Source of the DNA: an uncultured Nitrososphaerota archaeon
GTDB lineage: Archaea > Thermoproteota > EX4484-205 > JAAOZP01
Reading direction: 5' to 3'
Length of the DNA stretch: 64,000 nt
Assembly (NCBI GenBank): GCA_964635675.1
Contig: CAZWPT010000016.1
Location: forward strand, 18,522-82,521
Part shown: piece by piece, positions 48,014-59,203 of the stretch
How positions within the stretch are numbered: the stretch's first letter is position 1
How the letters are laid out: every line of letters begins with the position of its first letter
The notes under the pieces: generated by a model
Databases searched by the model: none
What the model saw: the letters and a program-made list of their open reading frames with translations, nothing else
Told to the model about the DNA's origin: nothing
Made by a program: the position numbers and the translations under genes

Positions 48014-49018
48014 TCAGAGATCCGTGTAGTCGAGCACTAAGGGGAGCCCGGGTAAGGCCGGTATTCTAGTTAGGCTGCTCGCCATCCTCCAGGCGTCTAT
48101 GCTCCACCTGCGCTGAGAAGGGGTTTCCGAACCCTTATCCTTTATTGAGAAGGCTTTCACGAGCATTGGTGAGGATGCTATGAGTGATGAGACTATTCCG
48201 CCTAAGAGGCCCAGCGGATTCAGAAAGACTGTTGCTAAAAGCCCGGTCAGCAAGCCTACTGCGACGATGGCTGCGGAGGCGGTTAGCATTGTTGCCCGTG
48301 ACCTTGTGCTCAACGGGTACTCGACGAATAGGACCCTGCCCCCGGACGCGTCTAGGAGAACCCTGTGCGGCTTACCCTTGTAGACGTACTCCATTAGCCA
48401 GAATGGGTAGTGGACGAGCCCAAGGTAGTTGACTTCAACGTTCTCAAGCCTCTTCGAGCCTCCGCAGCTCCTGCTAGCCTCAGCCATAGCCTGACCAGAT
48501 ATTAACCGGTATGCGGCGTTGTAGGCTTCCTCGTAGCTCAAGGTAGGCATGTAGAACCTGCTCCTCTGGGCTTGACCAGGGTTGAAGAAGCTTCTCCCCC
48601 TCACCGAGAACGAGAGTTCCTTGGCGTAGCTGTCGAGCCAGGTGCCTGTGTAAGCTGCCAGAATAGGCGTGTTCCGGGTCTCAAGGTAGCTGGCCTGCTT
48701 ACCGCCATAGGAGCAGGAGGAGTATGCCTTGCAGCTGAAAACATGGTAGGGAACGTTGTAGAGCTCGGCTTTGCGAAGATTAGCCTCAGCGTTGAAATCA
48801 TCCGGGACGCCGTACCTCCTGGTTATGAACTGCATTGCTTTACGCCAGGCTGACGGGCTCTCCACGTAGGCTGGGAACATGTAGTAGGTCCAGGTCTTCC
48901 CGGTTGAAAGCTCGAAGGTGTGGCCGCAGTAGGGGCAGACGATTATTGAGGCTGATTGCGGCGCGTTTATAGAAGCGTTGCAGTTTAGGCACGTGACTGT
49001 CTTCAGACTCATTTCCAC
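48014..49018 (-). CDS. zinc-ribbon membrane protein of unknown function (paralog A)
   Basis: 334 aa with an N-terminal CxxC-x17-CxxC ribbon (CLNCN...CPYCG), a roughly 200-aa soluble domain, a YxYKGK motif, and 2 C-terminal TM helices. Confidence 0.5.
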   Translation of the reverse strand: MEMSLKTVTCLNCNASINAPQSASIIVCPYCGHTFELSTGKTWTYYMFPAYVESPSAWRKAMQFITRRYGVPDDFNAEANLRKAELYNVPYHVFSCKAYSSCSYGGKQASYLETRNTPILAAYTGTWLDSYAKELSFSVRGRSFFNPGQAQRSRFYMPTLSYEEAYNAAYRLISGQAMAEASRSCGGSKRLENVEVNYLGLVHYPFWLMEYVYKGKPHRVLLDASGGRVLFVEYPLSTRSRATMLTASAAIVAVGLLTGLLATVFLNPLGLLGGIVSSLIASSPMLVKAFSIKDKGSETPSQRRWSIDAWRMASSLTRIPALPGLPLVLDYTDL

Positions 49019-49971
49019 CTTTCCTCCCTAACGTCGCTAACAGCCCTGCTCGCCAGGAGGGCTCCGGCTGCTGAAACAAGTATGAAGCCGAGTACTGGAA
49101 ACCATTCTCTGAAAGATGTTAAGAGGGCCAGTATGAAGGCGCCTGCCGCTACTGACAGGGTGCTTCCGAGTATGTACAGTATTCTCTGGCCTAGGAAGAC
49201 TGGTTCCGAAACCCTTAGGAATTGAAGGGTGTAGCCTGAGACGCTTGCCCTATACATTCCACCCTTATACTTGTATACTAGGCTCCAAATCGGGGCCAGC
49301 AGTATCCAGAGCGAGTTCACCCTGGCCTCGCAGGAATAGTAGTAGAAGCCGTCTAAGCCGTTGGAGGAGCGTGTGCTTTCCCTCAGCTCGTCCTCAACCA
49401 TGTCCTTAAGCTCGTCCTCAGCCTCCTCGGGGAGAAGCTCAGCGTTTAAAACCTGGAGCCCAACGTTCCTCCAGTCTATCGCAGCCAGGGGTTGAGGGTC
49501 TTTAGCGGACTTCGCCTGGCTCACAAGCTCCTCCAAGCCGTACTCGGCAGCCTCCCTCCTCGCCGTGAAGGCGAGCCTCATCGAAGTGTTGAAAGACCCT
49601 TTCTTCGTCACGGTCTTGGTGACGTATGATTTACCCCTTTTCTCAGTAACCCTCCGGAAGCCGGACCACTCGCCGACTGCGGAAACATCCCCCATGAGAA
49701 TCGGCACGTAGAAGCCCTGAGCCTCGACAAGCTCAATGTCGCTGTAGACCCTGCTCATATCTGGGTCGCTCCTCATCCTGCTCCAGAAGGCGTTCACCAC
49801 CTCGTCCCTTGTCCGAGTCGGCAGTATGAATATTTCAAACCTACCTGTGGAGAACCAGTTGACCGTCCCACAGTATTCGCACACGCACACTATTGTCTCA
49901 GGAGTGTAATTCAAGGGAGCACCGCAGTTTGAGCATTTGAAGACCTTTTCAGATATGGTTGACTCTGTCAA
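49009..49971 (-). CDS. zinc-ribbon membrane protein of unknown function (paralog B)
   Basis: 320 aa with an N-terminal ribbon (CSNCG...CEYCG), a YKYKGGMYRASVSG motif and 2-3 C-terminal TM helices. It overlaps paralog A by 10 nt and the upstream gene by 4 nt. Confidence 0.5.
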   Translation of the reverse strand: MTESTISEKVFKCSNCGAPLNYTPETIVCVCEYCGTVNWFSTGRFEIFILPTRTRDEVVNAFWSRMRSDPDMSRVYSDIELVEAQGFYVPILMGDVSAVGEWSGFRRVTEKRGKSYVTKTVTKKGSFNTSMRLAFTARREAAEYGLEELVSQAKSAKDPQPLAAIDWRNVGLQVLNAELLPEEAEDELKDMVEDELRESTRSSNGLDGFYYYSCEARVNSLWILLAPIWSLVYKYKGGMYRASVSGYTLQFLRVSEPVFLGQRILYILGSTLSVAAGAFILALLTSFREWFPVLGFILVSAAGALLASRAVSDVREERWK

Positions 49972-50378
49972 CGCCTACCAATCCTTGAAACTATTACCCC
50001 GACCACGACGATTATTATGAGGGATATGCTCAGGTTAAGCGGCAGGTTTCCGGTGAGAAGCGTTAGGAAGAGTGAGAAACCAAGGCAGCACATCACTAGT
50101 CCCCAAATAAGGTAGTACTTGAAGTCGGCAGCGTGAATCGAGAAGAAAACAGTGTAGAACCCAAGCATGATGAGCGGCAGTGAAACTAGAATAAGCGGTT
50201 CACCGTAGCCTGTTGAAAACAGTATGCCGTCTATGCCTATTGAAACTAGCAGGACAGCCAGCGCGTAGCCTCCATACCCGACTTTTCTACTCATCTCATT
50301 AGCCTCAGAACCACAAGGCGAGCTTTGAATATATAACTTTTCCCTATCTTCGCCAAGGATTGAAGGGACATTGAGCAC
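49968..50378 (-). CDS. small polytopic membrane protein (4 TM)
   Basis: Four hydrophobic helices. The likely true start is the internal Met at 50294 (MSRKVGYGG...), with a TATATA box at 50329-50337. Confidence 0.4.
   Translation of the reverse strand: MLNVPSILGEDREKLYIQSSPCGSEANEMSRKVGYGGYALAVLLVSIGIDGILFSTGYGEPLILVSLPLIMLGFYTVFFSIHAADFKYYLIWGLVMCCLGFSLFLTLLTGNLPLNLSISLIIIVVVGVIVSRIGRR
50329..50337 (-). promoter_or_regulatory. TATA-like box (TTATATATT on the minus strand) upstream of the 4TM / Zn-ribbon membrane operon
   Basis: About 35-40 nt upstream of the internal Met at 50294. Confidence 0.3.
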
Positions 50379-50384
50379 CTAGCC

Positions 50385-50690
50385 TCAATTTTCCTCGTTA
50401 TGCTCACCAATTCTTCTGGGCCAAGCTCCTCGTGAGAACCTAGCGCGCGCTAATAGGACAACCCTTCCATCCCTCATGAGTTTTCCGATACGTCTAACCG
50501 CCTCCTCAGGATTAACATGTGAAAAACCGTTTTCATCCCAAGCGGCAACGCCGCCAGACCTGGTCGCCACAAAGTAGTTAGACTGAGTGAAAAACCTCTT
50601 TAACAGGAAGGTCTTCCCGGTTTTCCGACTCCCGTAAACCAGTACCCATCCTATTAGACCTCTTAATTCGTCTTCCTCCCCCTGCTTACT
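50385..50690 (-). pseudogene. degraded N-terminal fragment of an archaeal-type P-loop ATPase (PF01637-like)
   Basis: An in-frame stretch ...GWVLVYGSRKTGKTFLLKRFF... (Walker A) has no in-frame ATG/GTG/TTG upstream. An ATG sits one frame off, with an extra G in a GGG run. The reading frame stops after about 105 aa, whereas family members are 350 aa or longer. Confidence 0.4.
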
Positions 50691-50700
50691 ATGATATGAG

Positions 50701-50736
50701 GAATATTCTCCACAGAATATTCCCTTTAGAATATTC
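50701..50736. repeat. three direct copies of the 8-bp palindrome GAATATTC at exact 14-bp spacing (candidate operator array)
   Basis: GAATATTC at 50701, 50715 and 50729, with context gGAATATTCtcc / aGAATATTCcct / aGAATATTCtca. On the minus strand the array lies just downstream of a TATA-like GTTTATGA, upstream of the ATPase fragment. Confidence 0.6.
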
Positions 50737-50812
50737 TCATAAACCTTTAGCTTATCCTATGCACCAGTTCAGATCTGCCTCTTGACCATCGACTCTACTT
50801 GTTTAATTCAAA

Positions 50813-51964
50813 CTATTGGAGCTTTGCACCGCAATTAAGGCAAAACTTTGAGCCCTCAGGCACCGTGGACCCGCATTTCGGACAGTTAACACTCTGAGGC
50901 TGCAACTGAGCTCCGCAGTTCATGCAGAACTTTGCGCCAGCAGGGTTCTGTGTTCCGCATTTCGGACAATTCACCGTGGCCTGCATGGGTGCACCGCAGC
51001 TCATACAGAATTTAGCTGTGCTCGGGTTCTGCGTCCCGCATTTCGGGCATGCTACTGTTCCTGCTGGAGGCGCGGCTGGTGGCTGCGCCGGCGGTGGCGG
51101 GGGTGCTTGGATGGCTGCGCCGCAGGACGGGCAGAACTTGCTTGTGGAGGGTACTTGTGCTTTGCAGCTTGGACATATGACCATTGGTGCTGCGGCAGCC
51201 TGCTGCATTAGCTGGGGCACCAGAACTATTCCTGTTCCAGCCGCCGCCCCGGGCGACTTGCTCAGGGACTCGGCGACGCTCTTAGTCGTGTCCATCGCCA
51301 TGACTTGTGTCGCAGCGCCGCCGGTCTGCTTTATCCAGAACAGCCTGTCCCTGTACTCCGGCGTGGTGTCAACACCCTCAAACTTTAGGTCTATGACGTC
51401 TACGCCGACACGCTTAAACTCCTCGTCTATCGTTGCCTTAACCTTGAACGAAACCTCCTCAAGCTTTGTGAAGACCGTCACAAGGTCGTATTTCGAGAGC
51501 TGCGTTATCAGCCTCTCGTTCATGAATCCCCGTAGGAAACTGTTTACGGATTCAGTGGTGTATGCGCTCTGCCCTCCCACGACCTCCATTACGAACGTCT
51601 TAGGATCCCCGATTTTAAACCAGAATGCCCCATAGAACTTCAGGGGTGCGAGCTCAACCGTCTGCCCGCTGGCTCCGAACAATCCTTTAAACTGCTTCGT
51701 GGAGACGAATATGACTGTGGCTTTGAAAGGCGTGGTCTCGAAGCCAGCCACCCTTGTTAACACGCCTGTGAGCAGCGGCAGGTTCATCGTTGTTAAAGTA
51801 TGTCTGCCAGGCCCGAAGACATCGTAAGCCTTGCCGTCCCTGAAGAATATTGCAGCCTCATACTCGTGGACGATCAGCTGAGCACCCCAGGTTATCTCCT
51901 CCTTCGGGTATCTCCAGACGATGTCGTCAGCGGAAGCCCCTATCCACTCTATTATCTGAGGCAT
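50813..51964 (-). CDS. SPFH/Band-7 superfamily protein (PF13421-like) with four C-terminal zinc ribbons
   Basis: 383 aa. The N-terminal IEWIG..DDIVWRYP...GAQLIVHEYEAAIFFRDGKAYDVFGPGRHTLTT matches the SPFH-like family. The C-terminus has a Pro-rich linker and 4x C-P-x-C-G...KFCxxCG. Confidence 0.7.
   Translation of the reverse strand: MPQIIEWIGASADDIVWRYPKEEITWGAQLIVHEYEAAIFFRDGKAYDVFGPGRHTLTTMNLPLLTGVLTRVAGFETTPFKATVIFVSTKQFKGLFGASGQTVELAPLKFYGAFWFKIGDPKTFVMEVVGGQSAYTTESVNSFLRGFMNERLITQLSKYDLVTVFTKLEEVSFKVKATIDEEFKRVGVDVIDLKFEGVDTTPEYRDRLFWIKQTGGAATQVMAMDTTKSVAESLSKSPGAAAGTGIVLVPQLMQQAAAAPMVICPSCKAQVPSTSKFCPSCGAAIQAPPPPPAQPPAAPPAGTVACPKCGTQNPSTAKFCMSCGAPMQATVNCPKCGTQNPAGAKFCMNCGAQLQPQSVNCPKCGSTVPEGSKFCLNCGAKLQ
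50816..51175 (-). repeat. in-frame tandem repeats encoding four zinc-ribbon modules (roughly 23-aa / 69-nt units)
   Basis: Nucleotide-level repeats (ccgcatttcggaca... three times) encode CPKCGTQNP..AKFCM.CGA..Q units at aa 264-283, 306-325, 333-352 and 361-380. Confidence 0.8.
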
Positions 51965-55702: not shown

Positions 55703-57541
55703 CTAGCCTATAAGGTTTAGCCTCTTCAGGAGCTCGAGGGAAACGTCTCTAGTCGGGCTTTCCGGCCTAGAAAGGCTTCTGAAGGCTTGAGAAACATATA
55801 GTATTGTTGAGACTTCTTCATCGCTTAAAACACGTATCTTAATATTCCCGAGGGCCTCGAGGGCTTTCTGAAGCTCCGGGTCTACTGGACAAGTAGTAAG
55901 TAGAACAACCCTGTCGAGCTTCCTGCTCCTCGCAAAGTCTATAAGGGGCTCGATACTGCTTCTTCTAAGCCCCTCGGAAGGCTTCGGCGCTTTAATCATA
56001 ACCCCGACCTGCGCCCCGCCTCTAGTGTTATCGGTGAAAAGCAGGTCTATCTCCCTCTTCCTGGTTAGAGAGACGTTTATTCTCCTCCTGCCTATGAGGC
56101 TCTCTTTTCCAAGACCTGTTTCAATAAGGCTTGAAACAGCCTTTTCAAGAACGATCGCCCTCTCAGAGGATTTCTCAATGTTGTAGAACCTCGTCATTAT
56201 CTGGCTTTTAACATCGCTGTCCGGCGTAACCGGGGTTGCGAGCCTAGCGGCGGGCAGACCCATTTTCATAACGGCCTCCATCGCTATCACAGTATCCACG
56301 TAATCGGGTTGAGTAATGCCCCTCTCAAGTCTTTCAGCAAGTATCTCGATGCAGGCGAAACACTCTGATAGAAGCCTCCTGATTTCCCCGCCTGAGTTTG
56401 CCCAGAGGAGTTTAACACTGTTCATGGGAAACATGTTTGAATACGAGCGGCCGCCCCTGTCAAGATAGAGGGCCTTCACATACCTGTCGATTATGTCCTT
56501 AGCCTCCTCCACGCTTATCTTCTCGAGGCTTATCGGGGTTGAGGAAACCCTGCTGACTATTGCAGGCGCCACCCTGAACCTTTGCCCCTTCAACTCTTCA
56601 AACATTACTGGTGTTAAAAGCAGAAGTATGAATAGACCGCCCGGACCATTATCCACAATCCTTTTCAAAGTATGGAAGAAAAAGTCGATATTATCCTGCA
56701 CAAGCGTCTCAACCTCGTCAACAACGATTACGAAAGGCGAGTTGCTGACTAGCTTCGAGAGATTCACCAGCGTCGTTAAGAATTTTAAAGCATTCTCGTC
56801 GGACTCCCTGAGGTAGTCGTTCGAATGCTTAACACCCCAGCTCCCGTAATACGGGCTTGGAAGCCACAGTATCCATTTCGCCAGGTTGAGATCTATGAAC
56901 CTTCTCGTTTTCGAGGGCTCAAACCTTGTTTCAAACATTTTCTCCAGTTCTTCAAGCTCGAGCCTTACGAGCCCGGTTATCTCAATCACCCCTTCTTCAA
57001 CAAGTTTCCTAACAGTCCTGAAATCGTTTGAAATCGTGTTGAAAGCCTCCCTAGCCTTCTCAGCCTTCTTACCTAAGACTACTGAAATCAGCCCGACGCT
57101 AACGGTTTTCTGAAACAGTTCGTAACCCATCTTGGAGATCAGCGCCTGGTGTAGCCTCAGGGAAAGCTCCATGAGAAACTCTTTGCTGCCCAGCGTCTCC
57201 ACAACCTTGGAGGTGAAGAAGATGAGGGAGGGCTTGTAAACAGAGTCTTGAATAGTAGGCATGTATGAGAAGGACTGGCCTGGTTTCTCCTGGCTTAGAA
57301 GGTATTGAAGGTGTAGGGCGAGATGCGTCTTCCCGCTTCCAGCATCCCCTATAAGCATGTCGATCTTAGGCTCCTCAAGCCTGAACGAGTAGTCTATCTC
57401 CTCCCTAATCCTTTTCAACGCGTTTATCCTAGACTCCCCGCCAAGTATCCATATTCTGCTCGGGACAGGGGTCAGGGGGAACGGGTTGGCTTCAAGCATC
57501 AGACGAGAGTACTTATTTGACGATTGCATAATGGTAAACAC
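55703..57541 (-). CDS. P-loop NTPase (AAA_16/PF01637-like) with a C-terminal PD-(D/E)xK nuclease-like (DUF234-like) domain
   Basis: 612 aa with Walker A LIGDAGSGKTHL and Walker B FVIVVDEVE. The C-terminal roughly 180 aa carries a D...(V)xK-type signature (EIDLLFTD...GVMIK). Confidence 0.5.
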   Translation of the reverse strand: MFTIMQSSNKYSRLMLEANPFPLTPVPSRIWILGGESRINALKRIREEIDYSFRLEEPKIDMLIGDAGSGKTHLALHLQYLLSQEKPGQSFSYMPTIQDSVYKPSLIFFTSKVVETLGSKEFLMELSLRLHQALISKMGYELFQKTVSVGLISVVLGKKAEKAREAFNTISNDFRTVRKLVEEGVIEITGLVRLELEELEKMFETRFEPSKTRRFIDLNLAKWILWLPSPYYGSWGVKHSNDYLRESDENALKFLTTLVNLSKLVSNSPFVIVVDEVETLVQDNIDFFFHTLKRIVDNGPGGLFILLLLTPVMFEELKGQRFRVAPAIVSRVSSTPISLEKISVEEAKDIIDRYVKALYLDRGGRSYSNMFPMNSVKLLWANSGGEIRRLLSECFACIEILAERLERGITQPDYVDTVIAMEAVMKMGLPAARLATPVTPDSDVKSQIMTRFYNIEKSSERAIVLEKAVSSLIETGLGKESLIGRRRINVSLTRKREIDLLFTDNTRGGAQVGVMIKAPKPSEGLRRSSIEPLIDFARSRKLDRVVLLTTCPVDPELQKALEALGNIKIRVLSDEEVSTILYVSQAFRSLSRPESPTRDVSLELLKRLNLIG

Positions 57542-58022
57542 CCCTAGCTGTCTTCAACCCGTTACCTGGCTCCCCGCTTCCAGCGTGAAGTTGAACAGCG
57601 TATGGATCATTACTGTTCAACTCGGTTATCCTCCTGTTGAATTCATCGCCGCTTATATTTAATTCTTCAGATACTTTAAGCCTGAGATCAGATATTTTCA
57701 CGTATGGAGCTATTGGACTGGTTCTCACCAGCTCGCCATACTTCAACCTTAAAGTCTCGAGGAACCGTTCAGGCGACAGCTGTTCAGCCTCCTTGAGCCT
57801 AGCGTACTTTAAAACCGGGAAGCCCCAAACGTTTTCAACGCAGTAGGCCCTTCCCGACTCAGAAGTCCTATACTTTTTAACGGTTCTAGGCCTTCCTTCA
57901 ACCGCTTCTAGAAAGCCTTTTTTAACTAGTTCTTTAAACTCTTTTTCAGTAAGCCTGCCAGCCTTCTTAACCATCTTCTCCGTAACCCCCTTAGGAGTGT
58001 CGGCGAAGACAAGCGCGAGCAA
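57513..58022 (-). CDS. small hypothetical protein (possible winged-helix) coupled to the NTPase
   Basis: 169 aa, basic, with no recognisable family. Its 3' end overlaps the NTPase start by 29 nt. Confidence 0.35.
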   Translation of the reverse strand: MLALVFADTPKGVTEKMVKKAGRLTEKEFKELVKKGFLEAVEGRPRTVKKYRTSESGRAYCVENVWGFPVLKYARLKEAEQLSPERFLETLRLKYGELVRTSPIAPYVKISDLRLKVSEELNISGDEFNRRITELNSNDPYAVQLHAGSGEPGNGLKTARGVYHYAIVK

Positions 58023-58194
58023 TTGGAACTCGTTCAGCCGGTATCACCTTATTAAAAATGGCCTAAGGTAGTTTTTAAAGCTTGCCTGACGGCCCGCCAC
58101 AGCAAGCCCCATCCCCCGGGTATTCAGAGGTTTAGATAAAGTTAAATCCTACGAGGCGAGACGTTTCCCTACACAGGAAGGCAAACGGTTAGAG

Positions 58195-58659
58195 ATGAGG
58201 CGGAAAAGGAAGCGTAAAATGGTTTTTCCCAGAACCATGTTTGAATGCAGGGTGTGCGGGAAATGCTGCGTCGAGGATGTTAGGCGTGGTAGACGGATAG
58301 TTCTAACCAGGACTGACGCCTTAGAAATCTCGAGCGCTACTGGAATAGGTTTGAGCGAGTTTGCGGAGGAAAACAGTAGTGAAGCCTACCCGTATGCTAT
58401 TAGGCTTGTTAACGGGAGATGCTTCTTCCTTAAGCCGGACAACAAGTGTAGTATTTACCCGGTTAGACCCCTGGTGTGCAGGTTCTACCCTTTCGTAATG
58501 CAGAAGGTTGGAGAGACATACGTGTTTCACGCTGACCCTTTCTGCCCAGGGCTTGGGGAAGGCGCTTATCTTGACGAAGAATATTTCGAGAAGCTTGTCG
58601 AGCAGGCTGAGAAGCGTTTAAACAGGTCTACTGGGCTGTTCGAGGCGCGCCGCAGTTAG
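58195..58659 (+). CDS. YkgJ-family Cys-cluster protein (CxxCxxCC, UPF0153)
   Basis: 154 aa with CRVCGKCC plus downstream Cys (GRCFF, NKCSIYPVRPLVCRFYPF). It is a paralog of 42757-43278. Confidence 0.6.
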   Translation: MRRKRKRKMVFPRTMFECRVCGKCCVEDVRRGRRIVLTRTDALEISSATGIGLSEFAEENSSEAYPYAIRLVNGRCFFLKPDNKCSIYPVRPLVCRFYPFVMQKVGETYVFHADPFCPGLGEGAYLDEEYFEKLVEQAEKRLNRSTGLFEARRS

Positions 58660-59203
58660 GACACCTGGTCTCACCCTGTGGGAAAACGGTTCCACAATAC
58701 TTGCATGAAACAGTGGATAGCGCGTGCTGAACCTGGAGAGGCGGGGAAACCTGTATTTCGATGGTTTTACTCGTCGCATCAGGCCGCCCTTCTACAGCAG
58801 CAACCCCCTTCAGATTCCAGGCTACAACCCTATCTAGGCTCTTGAAAGAAGGCTGGGCTCCGGGAGGAATTAGGATTTTAAACTGGTAGCTCTGGACAAA
58901 ACCCTCGGGAACGTGCAGAGGCCCAGCCAACTGTGGTCTAGCCGAAAATATGACTGCAGAATCCCAGACCTGTTGCTCAACCTCCCTTTTAAGAGAAGCT
59001 TCGTAAACCCTCCTGGTTTTACGCACCCGCTCGACACACTCAAGCTCGCACCTTATCTCAGTGCAGTCGAACTCTTCCTGAGACTCGACCTGTACTGCTC
59101 CCTCCACGTTGTCACCAAGATAGAAGATCTGCTTCTTCAGAAGCAGAGATATGTTTACCCTGGGTGGGGTAACCTTATCCCTGAGTTTCTTAAACAGGCT
59201 CAC
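58628..59203 (-). CDS. SpoOM-like arrestin-fold protein with a C-terminal zinc ribbon
   Basis: 191 aa. The N-terminal MSLFKKLRDKV...LGDNVEGAVQVES resembles the SpoOM family start (MSFFKKL..VGIG..VDT.L...PGE.V.G.V). The C-terminus is CKYCG...CPNCG. Confidence 0.5.
   Translation of the reverse strand: MSLFKKLRDKVTPPRVNISLLLKKQIFYLGDNVEGAVQVESQEEFDCTEIRCELECVERVRKTRRVYEASLKREVEQQVWDSAVIFSARPQLAGPLHVPEGFVQSYQFKILIPPGAQPSFKSLDRVVAWNLKGVAAVEGRPDATSKTIEIQVSPPLQVQHALSTVSCKYCGTVFPQGETRCPNCGAPRTAQ

Follow-up and report, generated by a model that had tools for sequence, protein, structure and literature searches.

A conserved archaeal gene pair encoding a BrxD-like AAA+ ATPase with a degenerate Mrr-type domain and a predicted tandem winged-helix partner

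In McrBC/Mrr-type enzymes a reader, an NTPase and a PD-(D/E)xK nuclease are brought together. The catalytic domain of the Mrr-family type IV restriction endonucleases (PF04471 and PF13156) has an alpha-beta-beta-beta-alpha-beta core with an Asp in strand 2 and a Lys in strand 3, and is paired with a winged-helix reader. Orc1/Cdc6, TnsC, MuB and BrxC are AAA+ switches that oligomerise on double-stranded DNA. BrxD, the ATPase of type 2 BREX (PF10923, formerly DUF2791), is described as a standalone ATPase, and an HEH insert has been described for it (PMC12839542). Features of all these proteins are found in a pair of genes on the minus strand of a 64,000-nucleotide (nt) stretch of DNA, called the window, from an uncultured Nitrososphaerota archaeon (contig CAZWPT010000016.1). 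One gene encodes an ATPase with a nuclease-fold tail, while the other, just upstream, encodes a small basic protein, its partner. A sequence-only reading of the window had proposed the pair as a candidate defence or mobile-element module, perhaps in a family that is turning over. The pair looks instead like an operon of two genes that is passed on vertically, and all the Brockarchaeota-like (Thermoproteota) genomes and contigs recovered contain it. The explanation favoured here, with a probability of roughly 0.55, is that it encodes a complex, fixed in the lineage, that uses ATP to bind or sense DNA and goes back to a nuclease module of restriction-like type.

Conservation of the gene pair

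The ATPase and the small protein are encoded by real genes, since both open reading frames are under strong purifying selection, and the two genes are translationally coupled. Homologues of each fall into 20-30 clusters, from Thermoproteota/Brockarchaeota metagenome-assembled genomes (MAGs), and a word-indexed profile search for homologues added nothing beyond 30 clusters. With their starts as revised in a later section, the genes and their junction are as follows.

55703..57529, minus strand: ATPase gene, 608 amino acids (aa), BrxD-like AAA+ module plus Mrr-type PD-(D/E)xK domain, from homologues, folds and profile comparison
57513..58037, minus strand: small partner gene, 174 aa with a CTG start, from start codon alignment and homologues
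57513..57529, minus strand: gene overlap of 17 nt, with the ATPase ATG within the small gene's terminal codons (...YHYAIVK and stop)

The ATPase was found in 14 GTDB species genomes in a species-genome scan, all of them Brockarchaeota-like. In 14/14 the order is arrestin-like gene, CxxCxxCC gene (on the opposite strand), partner, ATPase, THUMP methyltransferase, 2-Hacid_dh, further genes and Band_7, the only variation being an occasional inserted peptidase gene. The window has the same neighbours, namely the arrestin-like, CxxCxxCC, THUMP methyltransferase, 2-Hacid_dh, GFO/IDH/MocA and Band_7 genes. When the arrestin-like flank was used as a marker in a metagenome scan, all of the contigs in which the neighbourhood is preserved had the pair (9/9). 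This flank revealed no clean empty site, the other contigs being either non-syntenic (L037-40) or without a ~9-kb block (L033); here L numbers denote compared loci or contigs, and P numbers below denote homologous ATPase proteins or clusters.

Several local rearrangements accompany this order. The inserted peptidase is a 582-aa M48/M56 protein that occurs in one subclade; its gene separates those for the ATPase and the THUMP methyltransferase and lies on the other strand (L003 7429-9177, L004, L015, L016, L035 and L041). In L032 about 4 kb is inserted between the arrestin-like gene and the partner, and the CxxCxxCC gene is absent. In L033 the arrestin-like gene is directly followed, at 2086-2849, by a fragment of a homologue of the zinc-ribbon gene at 49 kb in the window; the ~9-kb block, including the pair, is missing or has moved, and a misassembly is possible.

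The pair evolves slowly. Measured against seven close relatives, the ATPase has a ratio of nonsynonymous to synonymous substitution rates (dN/dS) of 0.06-0.10 and the partner one of 0.06-0.18, compared with 0.11-0.19 for the THUMP methyltransferase, 0.09-0.15 for 2-Hacid_dh and 0.10-0.16 for the MFS gene. The dS of the pair tracks that of the flanking genes, which points to co-inheritance with these neighbours. In sister lineages the positional orthologues (L005 and L027) are only 30-36% identical, while the neighbouring genes are 59-67% identical. One ATPase relative (L023) adjoins an EVE-domain gene.

These observations do not support the defence or mobile-element reading at this locus. The expected presence/absence polymorphism does not appear, the synteny being identical in the 14 genomes and nine contigs; the ATPase is more constrained than its housekeeping neighbours; and no relatives were found in the IMG/VR, phage and plasmid collections. 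In its setting the pair also differs from BrxD, in that it is syntenic, fixed and not island-borne, and no BREX genes (PglX, PglZ, BrxC, PglW or BrxHI) adjoin it. It likewise differs from TnsC, MuB and BrxC in having no transposase or BREX partners.

The same evidence bears on the idea that the pair is a relic or domesticate of a Tn7/Mu-like transposition system, in which a TnsC/MuB-like AAA+ regulator would be fused to a TnsA-like domain of restriction fold and the partner would be a DNA-binding selector of the TniQ/TnsD type. TnsA is a PD-(D/E)xK protein that carries QxK, and the sole PHROG match of the pair is a MuB-like 'DNA transposition protein' (phrog_296, E 1.8e-6), both of which would fit. 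Such an origin is nevertheless extremely improbable, given that the synteny is stable, the dS equals that of the neighbours, no transposase, terminal repeats or integrase lie nearby, and the ATPase has its sequence affinity with BrxD-like proteins, not with TniB/TnsC. The window contains no tRNA gene, and the pair has no notable repeats on either side.

The AAA+ module and the nuclease-fold domain

The sequence features of the ATPase, numbered on the 608-aa product, are as follows.

57437..57496, minus strand: N-terminal LEANPFPLTPVPSRIWILGG motif, residues 12-31, near-invariant columns
57326..57349, minus strand: Walker A, GDAGSGKT, residues 61-68 (G61, K67 and T68 invariant, 29/29)
56744..57247, minus strand: all-helical insertion, residues ~95-262, about 10 helices in the predicted model (predicted local distance difference test score, pLDDT, mostly > 90)
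56714..56731, minus strand: Walker B, VIVVDE, residues 267-272 (D271 and E272 invariant, 29/29)
56549..56614, minus strand: candidate sensor 1 (T306) to candidate box VII arginine finger (S326-R327); T306 and R327 29/29
56375..56380, minus strand: candidate sensor 2, R384-R385 in GGEIRRLL of the lid domain (R384 29/29, R385 28/29)
55706..56218, minus strand: Mrr-type PD-(D/E)xK domain, residues ~438-608, from Mrr profiles and predicted fold; isoelectric point (pI) 9.7
55991..56047, minus strand: degenerate active site, with D495 at 56045-56047 and M511-I512-K513 at 55991-55999

The Walker A and Walker B motifs picked out by the sequence-only reading are present and invariant in 29 homologues. 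Its assignment of the protein to PF01637 (ATPase_2) with a DUF234 tail has no hidden Markov model support, as neither model matches at E <= 1 with the whole protein or at E <= 10 with the isolated tail; the window ATPase is related to these archaeal proteins at the superfamily level only, being BrxD-like with an Mrr-like tail. A Pfam scan of the ATPase returned only generic P-loop matches below threshold (AAA_22, AAA_16, NACHT and KAP), the PF10923 model did not match, and the NCBIfam model BREX_BrxD scored 15.1 bits against a cut-off of 350. With PADLOC the ATPase has a partial match to mad8 (1.2e-8, residues 50-296) and a weak one to BrxD (E 0.0022, residues 249-320 only). No complete system in PADLOC-DB v2 was matched, and the partner matches none of its families. 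The MADS literature yielded nothing on the function of mad8.

The affinity of the module emerges from comparison of families. An exhaustive profile search of 1.84 billion representatives gave 128 matches at E <= 1e-3, of which a handful (P0052-P0056, P0081 and P0084) are full-length relatives and the remainder are mostly proteins of ~400 aa. Among 56 of these remote matches that were sampled, 44 are BrxC_BrxD (PF10923) in Pfam and 40 are BrxD in PADLOC. When the ATPase family was aligned by hhalign with 17 standalone BrxC_BrxD-type ATPases (16/17 of them PF10923), the probability was 99.9% with E 1.4e-35 over 353 columns, corresponding to residues 7-402. The alignment covers nearly the whole of the BrxD-like proteins, including the NPFP motif, the large helical insert and the lid. 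As judged from this profile comparison, residues 7-402 form a complete BrxD-like (PF10923-type) AAA+ module of the ORC/Cdc6-TnsC-MuB-BrxC clade.

The likeness to BrxD extends over the NPFP motif, Walker A and B, the helical insert, the arginine finger and the lid, even though the window ATPase falls under the Pfam, NCBIfam and PADLOC thresholds for BrxD. The NPFP sequence, which lies within the LEANPFPLTPVPSRIWILGG motif, is common to BrxC_BrxD-family ATPases and invariant in the 17 BrxD-like proteins. The motif as a whole has a dN/dS of about 0.00-0.08, and the region in which it lies is predicted to be disordered (pLDDT < 50, residues 1-28). The helical insertion, which separates strand 2 from Walker B, lies where ORC/Cdc6 and BrxC/D carry their initiator-specific/HEH insert, and aligns with the matching insert of BrxD-like proteins; it is much larger than its counterpart in Orc1/Cdc6, TnsC, MuB and BrxC, to which the window ATPase is only 12-17% identical. 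Based on the pattern SR...PIxLExxxxEExKDII, which agrees with the Orc1/Cdc6 and BrxD alignments, T306 and S326-R327 are candidates for sensor 1 and the arginine finger, while the candidate sensor 2 arginines align with G..R..L of the BrxD-like proteins. All the elements by which an initiator-clade AAA+ fold was tested (Walker A and B, sensor 1, arginine finger and sensor 2) are thus found in the ATPase. Since K67, D271/E272, T306, R327 and R384 are invariant throughout the homologues, the module appears to be a functional AAA+ switch of the initiator clade that oligomerises, in agreement with the description of BrxD (PMC12839542).

The initiator-like architecture raises the question of whether the pair could be a chromosome-maintenance factor, acting in replication initiation, helicase loading or chromosome organisation. 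The ATPase would then be an ORC/Cdc6-clade protein without its own winged helix, served by a separate tandem winged-helix protein similar to WhiP/Cdt1 or ScpB. Its top fold matches do include Orc1/Cdc6 and ORC subunits, the partner matches ScpB best in the PDB and chain 8 of human OCCM weakly, and the conservation and fixed position of the pair are core-like. Such a role is very unlikely, however. In sequence the ATPase resembles BrxD-like proteins far more than Orc1/Cdc6; the matches to ScpB and OCCM, with TM (template modelling) scores of about 0.26, reflect a generic tandem winged-helix architecture; no origin-box-like or notable repeats are found near the pair; and the family is limited to one small lineage and sporadic relatives (the 128 matches among 1.84 billion). 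Where Orc1/Cdc6 has a C-terminal winged helix, the window ATPase has a restriction-endonuclease fold.

This C-terminal domain, which also sets the protein apart from the standalone BrxD, is the PD-(D/E)xK-like domain that the sequence-only reading had suspected; that suspicion is supported, with a length of ~170 aa, by way of a relative, P0030. The window tail scores only 13.7 bits against Mrr_cat (cut-off 21), and the isolated tail lists Mrr_cat alone, at E 0.068. P0030, which is 36% identical and alignable over its full length, scores 25.7 bits against Mrr_cat_2, above the gathering score of 22, and the Mrr homology of the window tail was assigned by transitivity through its residue-for-residue alignment to P0030. 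P0053 matches Mrr models weakly (16-17 bits), and the P0052 cluster carries the NCBI name 'restriction endonuclease'. In the predicted model the core has the order alpha-beta-beta-beta-alpha-beta (helix 454-473, strands 478-485, 491-500 and 506-513, helix 523-535, strand 540-545), as in the Mrr family, and Foldseek matches the domain to AspBHI.

The active site departs from the canonical one. The sequence-only reading had noted a D...xK signature, of which D495 is kept in 29/29 and the Lys mostly so (position 513 is K in 24 and R in 5), while the middle catalytic Glu/Gln is missing. Position 511, the (E/Q) of (E/Q)xK, is I in 19, M in 6, V in 3 and E in 1. The single Glu belongs to the distant P0030, and all 28 of the 28 clade members have Ile, Met or Val. 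The window clade differs in this respect, and in sometimes having Arg for Lys, from the Mrr family, as it does in the fusion of the domain to an AAA+ ATPase and the placement of the winged helices on a separate protein. Among the more distant relatives that can be aligned here, P0054 is the only one without E[VI]K. E456, E493 and E527 are conserved in relatives bearing E-x-K too, and so do not look compensatory. The domain has a dN/dS of 0.08-0.22, about 0.1, and is therefore clearly still functional; from the pattern of substitution, it is most likely non-catalytic in the window's clade. The sequence-only reading had itself named the absence of catalytic residues, or presence at the same locus in all relatives, as evidence against its proposal, and this is largely what the comparison gives.

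A working nuclease is the principal alternative. The pair would then be an NTP-dependent restriction-type immune system, fixed as an innate defence of the lineage, in which foreign or modified DNA is recognised by the winged-helix partner, the AAA+ module assembles on that DNA and the Mrr-like domain cuts. The cutting site would be non-canonical and would combine D495 and K/R513 with one more acidic residue, drawn from E456, E493, D500 or E527. Its architecture of reader, AAA+ protein and PD-(D/E)xK domain would parallel McrBC/Mrr-type enzymes, the closest PADLOC models to the ATPase are BrxD, mad8 and SngB, E-x-K is intact in distant relatives, which bear the annotation 'restriction endonuclease', and the strong constraint on the domain would be expected. 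The EVE-domain neighbour of the L023 relative, and a standalone BrxD-like dyad in a type I restriction-modification island (L064, see below), point the same way. The alternative is still doubtful. The metal-binding Glu/Gln is hydrophobic in every clade member and the catalytic Lys is Arg in five, the candidate substitute acidic residues are not compensatory, no methyltransferase or other self-protection partner is linked to the pair, and the partner is without a PADLOC match. Nor is there any island context or presence/absence polymorphism, and the pair evolves more slowly than its neighbours.

The partner protein, gene starts and neighbouring genes

The small protein is basic, as first noted, with a pI of 9.4. 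Its AlphaFold 2 model (pLDDT 84) has two winged-helix units joined by helices, and its best PDB match is the tandem winged-helix protein ScpB, followed by RPC62, YceH and many MarR-type winged helix-turn-helix proteins. On the basis of the model and these fold matches, the partner is a predicted tandem winged helix, in keeping with the earlier guess of a winged helix-turn-helix. The N-terminal unit (residues 1-75) is basic, with a pI of 9.6, and is followed by a linker. The C-terminal unit (residues ~85-174) is neutral (pI 7.0) and is by far the more conserved of the two. No Pfam, PHROG or PADLOC model matches the protein.

The C-terminal domain of the partner is found well beyond the window's clade. 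It recurs directly upstream of distant relatives of the ATPase with the nuclease fusion, the genes overlapping or abutting in six distant lineages (L005, L027, L028, L029, L026 and L023). In profile alignments the probability is 99.5% for L005 and 99.0% for L023, L027 and L028 are clearly alignable, L026 is not significant (hhalign E 0.032) and L029 has only a weak alignment pattern. The sole relative without such an upstream gene is L024/25, from Chloroflexota. A gene of 259-283 aa is likewise closely coupled to standalone BrxD-like (PF10923) ATPases on their upstream side (L064 5225-8036 and L067 1890-3980), and its C-terminal part bears a weak resemblance to the conserved domain of the partner (L067 88.8%, E 2.5e-6; L064 E 0.003). 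The two-gene unit thus predates the nuclease fusion. The L064 dyad lies inside a type I restriction-modification island, and L067 adjoins a TGT-like gene, possibly of the DpdA type. A 249-aa gene downstream at a standalone BrxD-like locus was considered as a detached nuclease domain and is not one.

The two open reading frames in the mechanical list (55703-57541, 612 aa, GTG; and 57513-58022, 169 aa, TTG) reproduce exactly the lengths and the 29-nt overlap reported earlier, and both starts have been revised by comparison. All homologues of the ATPase have the N-terminus MQSS/MSxS, and a Shine-Dalgarno sequence, GGGGTG (57541-57546), lies upstream of the corresponding ATG, embedded in the RGV codons of the small gene; for these reasons the start was reset to the ATG at 57529, giving 608 aa. 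The resulting 17-nt junction is kept in every clade locus. A 12-nt inverted repeat around the ATPase start (57477-57488 and 57555-57566) was considered as a coupling hairpin and rejected, as its arms are not kept in orthologous junctions.

The small gene starts at an invariant CTG (58037; codon 58035-58037, minus strand), giving 174 aa, as found by comparing 18 loci. The codons upstream of the listed 'TTG' read CTG AAC GAR TTY CAR in these loci, with synonymous differences at third positions and a single nonsynonymous exception, Glu to Ala in L011, while the 'TTG' itself varies among TTG, CTG and CTA, all Leu, and once ATG. In-frame stops directly precede the CTG, and AGGTGAT lies 5 nt upstream. 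The assignment of the start rests on the conserved codons, the invariant CTG, the preceding stops and the AGGTGAT together. Partners of the sister lineages (L005 and L027) are still longer at the N-terminus and can be aligned through the CTG AAC GAR TTY CAR segment. Several database entries for homologues of the small protein are truncated to 146-153 aa, a later ATG having been picked by gene callers.

Two elements precede the small gene.

58043..58049, minus strand: Shine-Dalgarno sequence AGGTGAT, kept in all 18 loci; an in-frame TGA inside it closes the upstream frame
58071..58083, minus strand: archaeal B recognition element (BRE)/TATA-like element AAGCTTTAAAAAC, conserved upstream of the small gene

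In 16 aligned orthologous intergenic regions AAGCTTTAAAA is near-invariant, and the BRE/TATA-like element presumably acts as the promoter. About 20 nt upstream of the AAGCTTTAAAAA box, a conserved AGCTTGC-like element is found in the window (58084-58110) and in the orthologous intergenic regions. In the window it is an imperfect palindrome, GCTTGCTG...CAGGCAAGC, which could be a candidate operator for the winged-helix partner.

A second ATPase gene lies nearby. Between the Band_7 gene and the next gene, at ~50379-50812 on the minus strand, a frame containing ...VYGSRKTGKTFLLKRF... ends after about 100 codons. It had been described as a degraded copy of a related ATPase. It is indeed a gene remnant, but one of an AAA_14-type ATPase with the Walker A sequence VYGSRKTGKT, without tblastn similarity to the 612-aa protein; as a copy of the latter family it was rejected, the two being unrelated beyond the P-loop. 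At the orthologous position L008 (12858-13836) has an intact-looking open reading frame of at least 318 aa with an AAA_14 match of 7.9e-8. Sequence related to it also occurs in L012, L014, L015 and L020; L001/L003 gave no match. The AAA_14 gene beside the Band_7 gene is genuinely variable and decaying.

The remaining neighbours include a 191-aa archaeal protein encoded at 58628-59203 on the minus strand, which scores 35.1 bits with Pfam Arrestin_N, more than the threshold, and carries a zinc ribbon at its C-terminus; proteins 43-96% identical to it are conserved in 34 metagenome contigs from several lineages. In the stretch 48014-51964 (minus strand) a Band_7/SPFH protein is encoded that has a linker rich in proline as well as four or five repeats of a zinc ribbon. 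Its gene is preceded by one for a conserved 178-aa protein without a family match and is followed, in a conserved order, by genes for a small membrane protein and two zinc-ribbon membrane proteins of ~320-330 aa.

A proposed origin and role

In the proposed complex, the partner would bind DNA through its basic N-terminal winged helix and dock the ATPase through the conserved, neutral C-terminal one, possibly on the disordered N-terminal peptide that contains NPFP. ATP-bound ATPase subunits would oligomerise on the DNA by means of the arginine finger, as in ORC/Cdc6, TnsC, MuB and BrxC, and the basic nuclease-fold domain would also contact DNA. With its metal-binding Glu replaced by Met, Ile or Val throughout the clade, this domain is most likely limited to nucleic-acid binding or sensing, cleavage having presumably been lost.

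Since D...E-x-K is retained in the more distant relatives, an NTP-dependent nuclease of restriction-like type was probably the ancestor. The E-x-K of distant relatives and the occurrence of standalone BrxD-like dyads within restriction-modification islands also make a defence ancestry plausible. The divergence of L005 and L027, the EVE-domain neighbour and the dyad in the restriction-modification island are compatible with a restriction-like ancestry.

Several points weigh against the idea of a lineage-fixed complex that binds or senses DNA. Defence genes that are fixed and evolve slowly are known. Constraint on the nuclease-fold domain is strong, with D495, E456, E493, D500, E527 and mostly K513 kept, and it may conceivably have a non-canonical active site with a migrated acidic residue, of the kind found in Cfr10I-type enzymes. 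A sequence search of the PDB with the ATPase gave P-loop-level matches only, with no solved structure of a close relative. The presence of the pair in all relatives is based on MAGs, and contig L033 lacks the whole ~9-kb block.

More tentatively, and on balance rather improbably, the ancestor of one archaeal lineage might have domesticated the module, with loss of the metal-binding Glu inactivating the nuclease and the pair becoming a slowly evolving core chromosomal factor, with the winged-helix partner and the BrxD-like ATPase forming an undescribed, widespread unit. An ATP-dependent DNA-organising complex, a repair-associated one or a regulatory one would be examples of its role.

BrxD-like ATPases and fusions of ATPases with restriction endonucleases are of a known kind, and what the locus adds to them, a conserved partner domain and an invariant CTG start, is modest. 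The CTG initiation codon of the small gene is a small, clean annotation lesson. The partner domain, which accompanies BrxD-like ATPases and has no Pfam or PADLOC model, could help to explain, in this two-protein version, how such ATPases are recruited to DNA. If the favoured explanation is true, the pair would be a compact case of an immune-type NTPase-nuclease that has been fixed and repurposed in an uncultured archaeal lineage, with a molecular signature in which Glu is replaced by a hydrophobic residue at the (E/Q)xK position and strong constraint follows.

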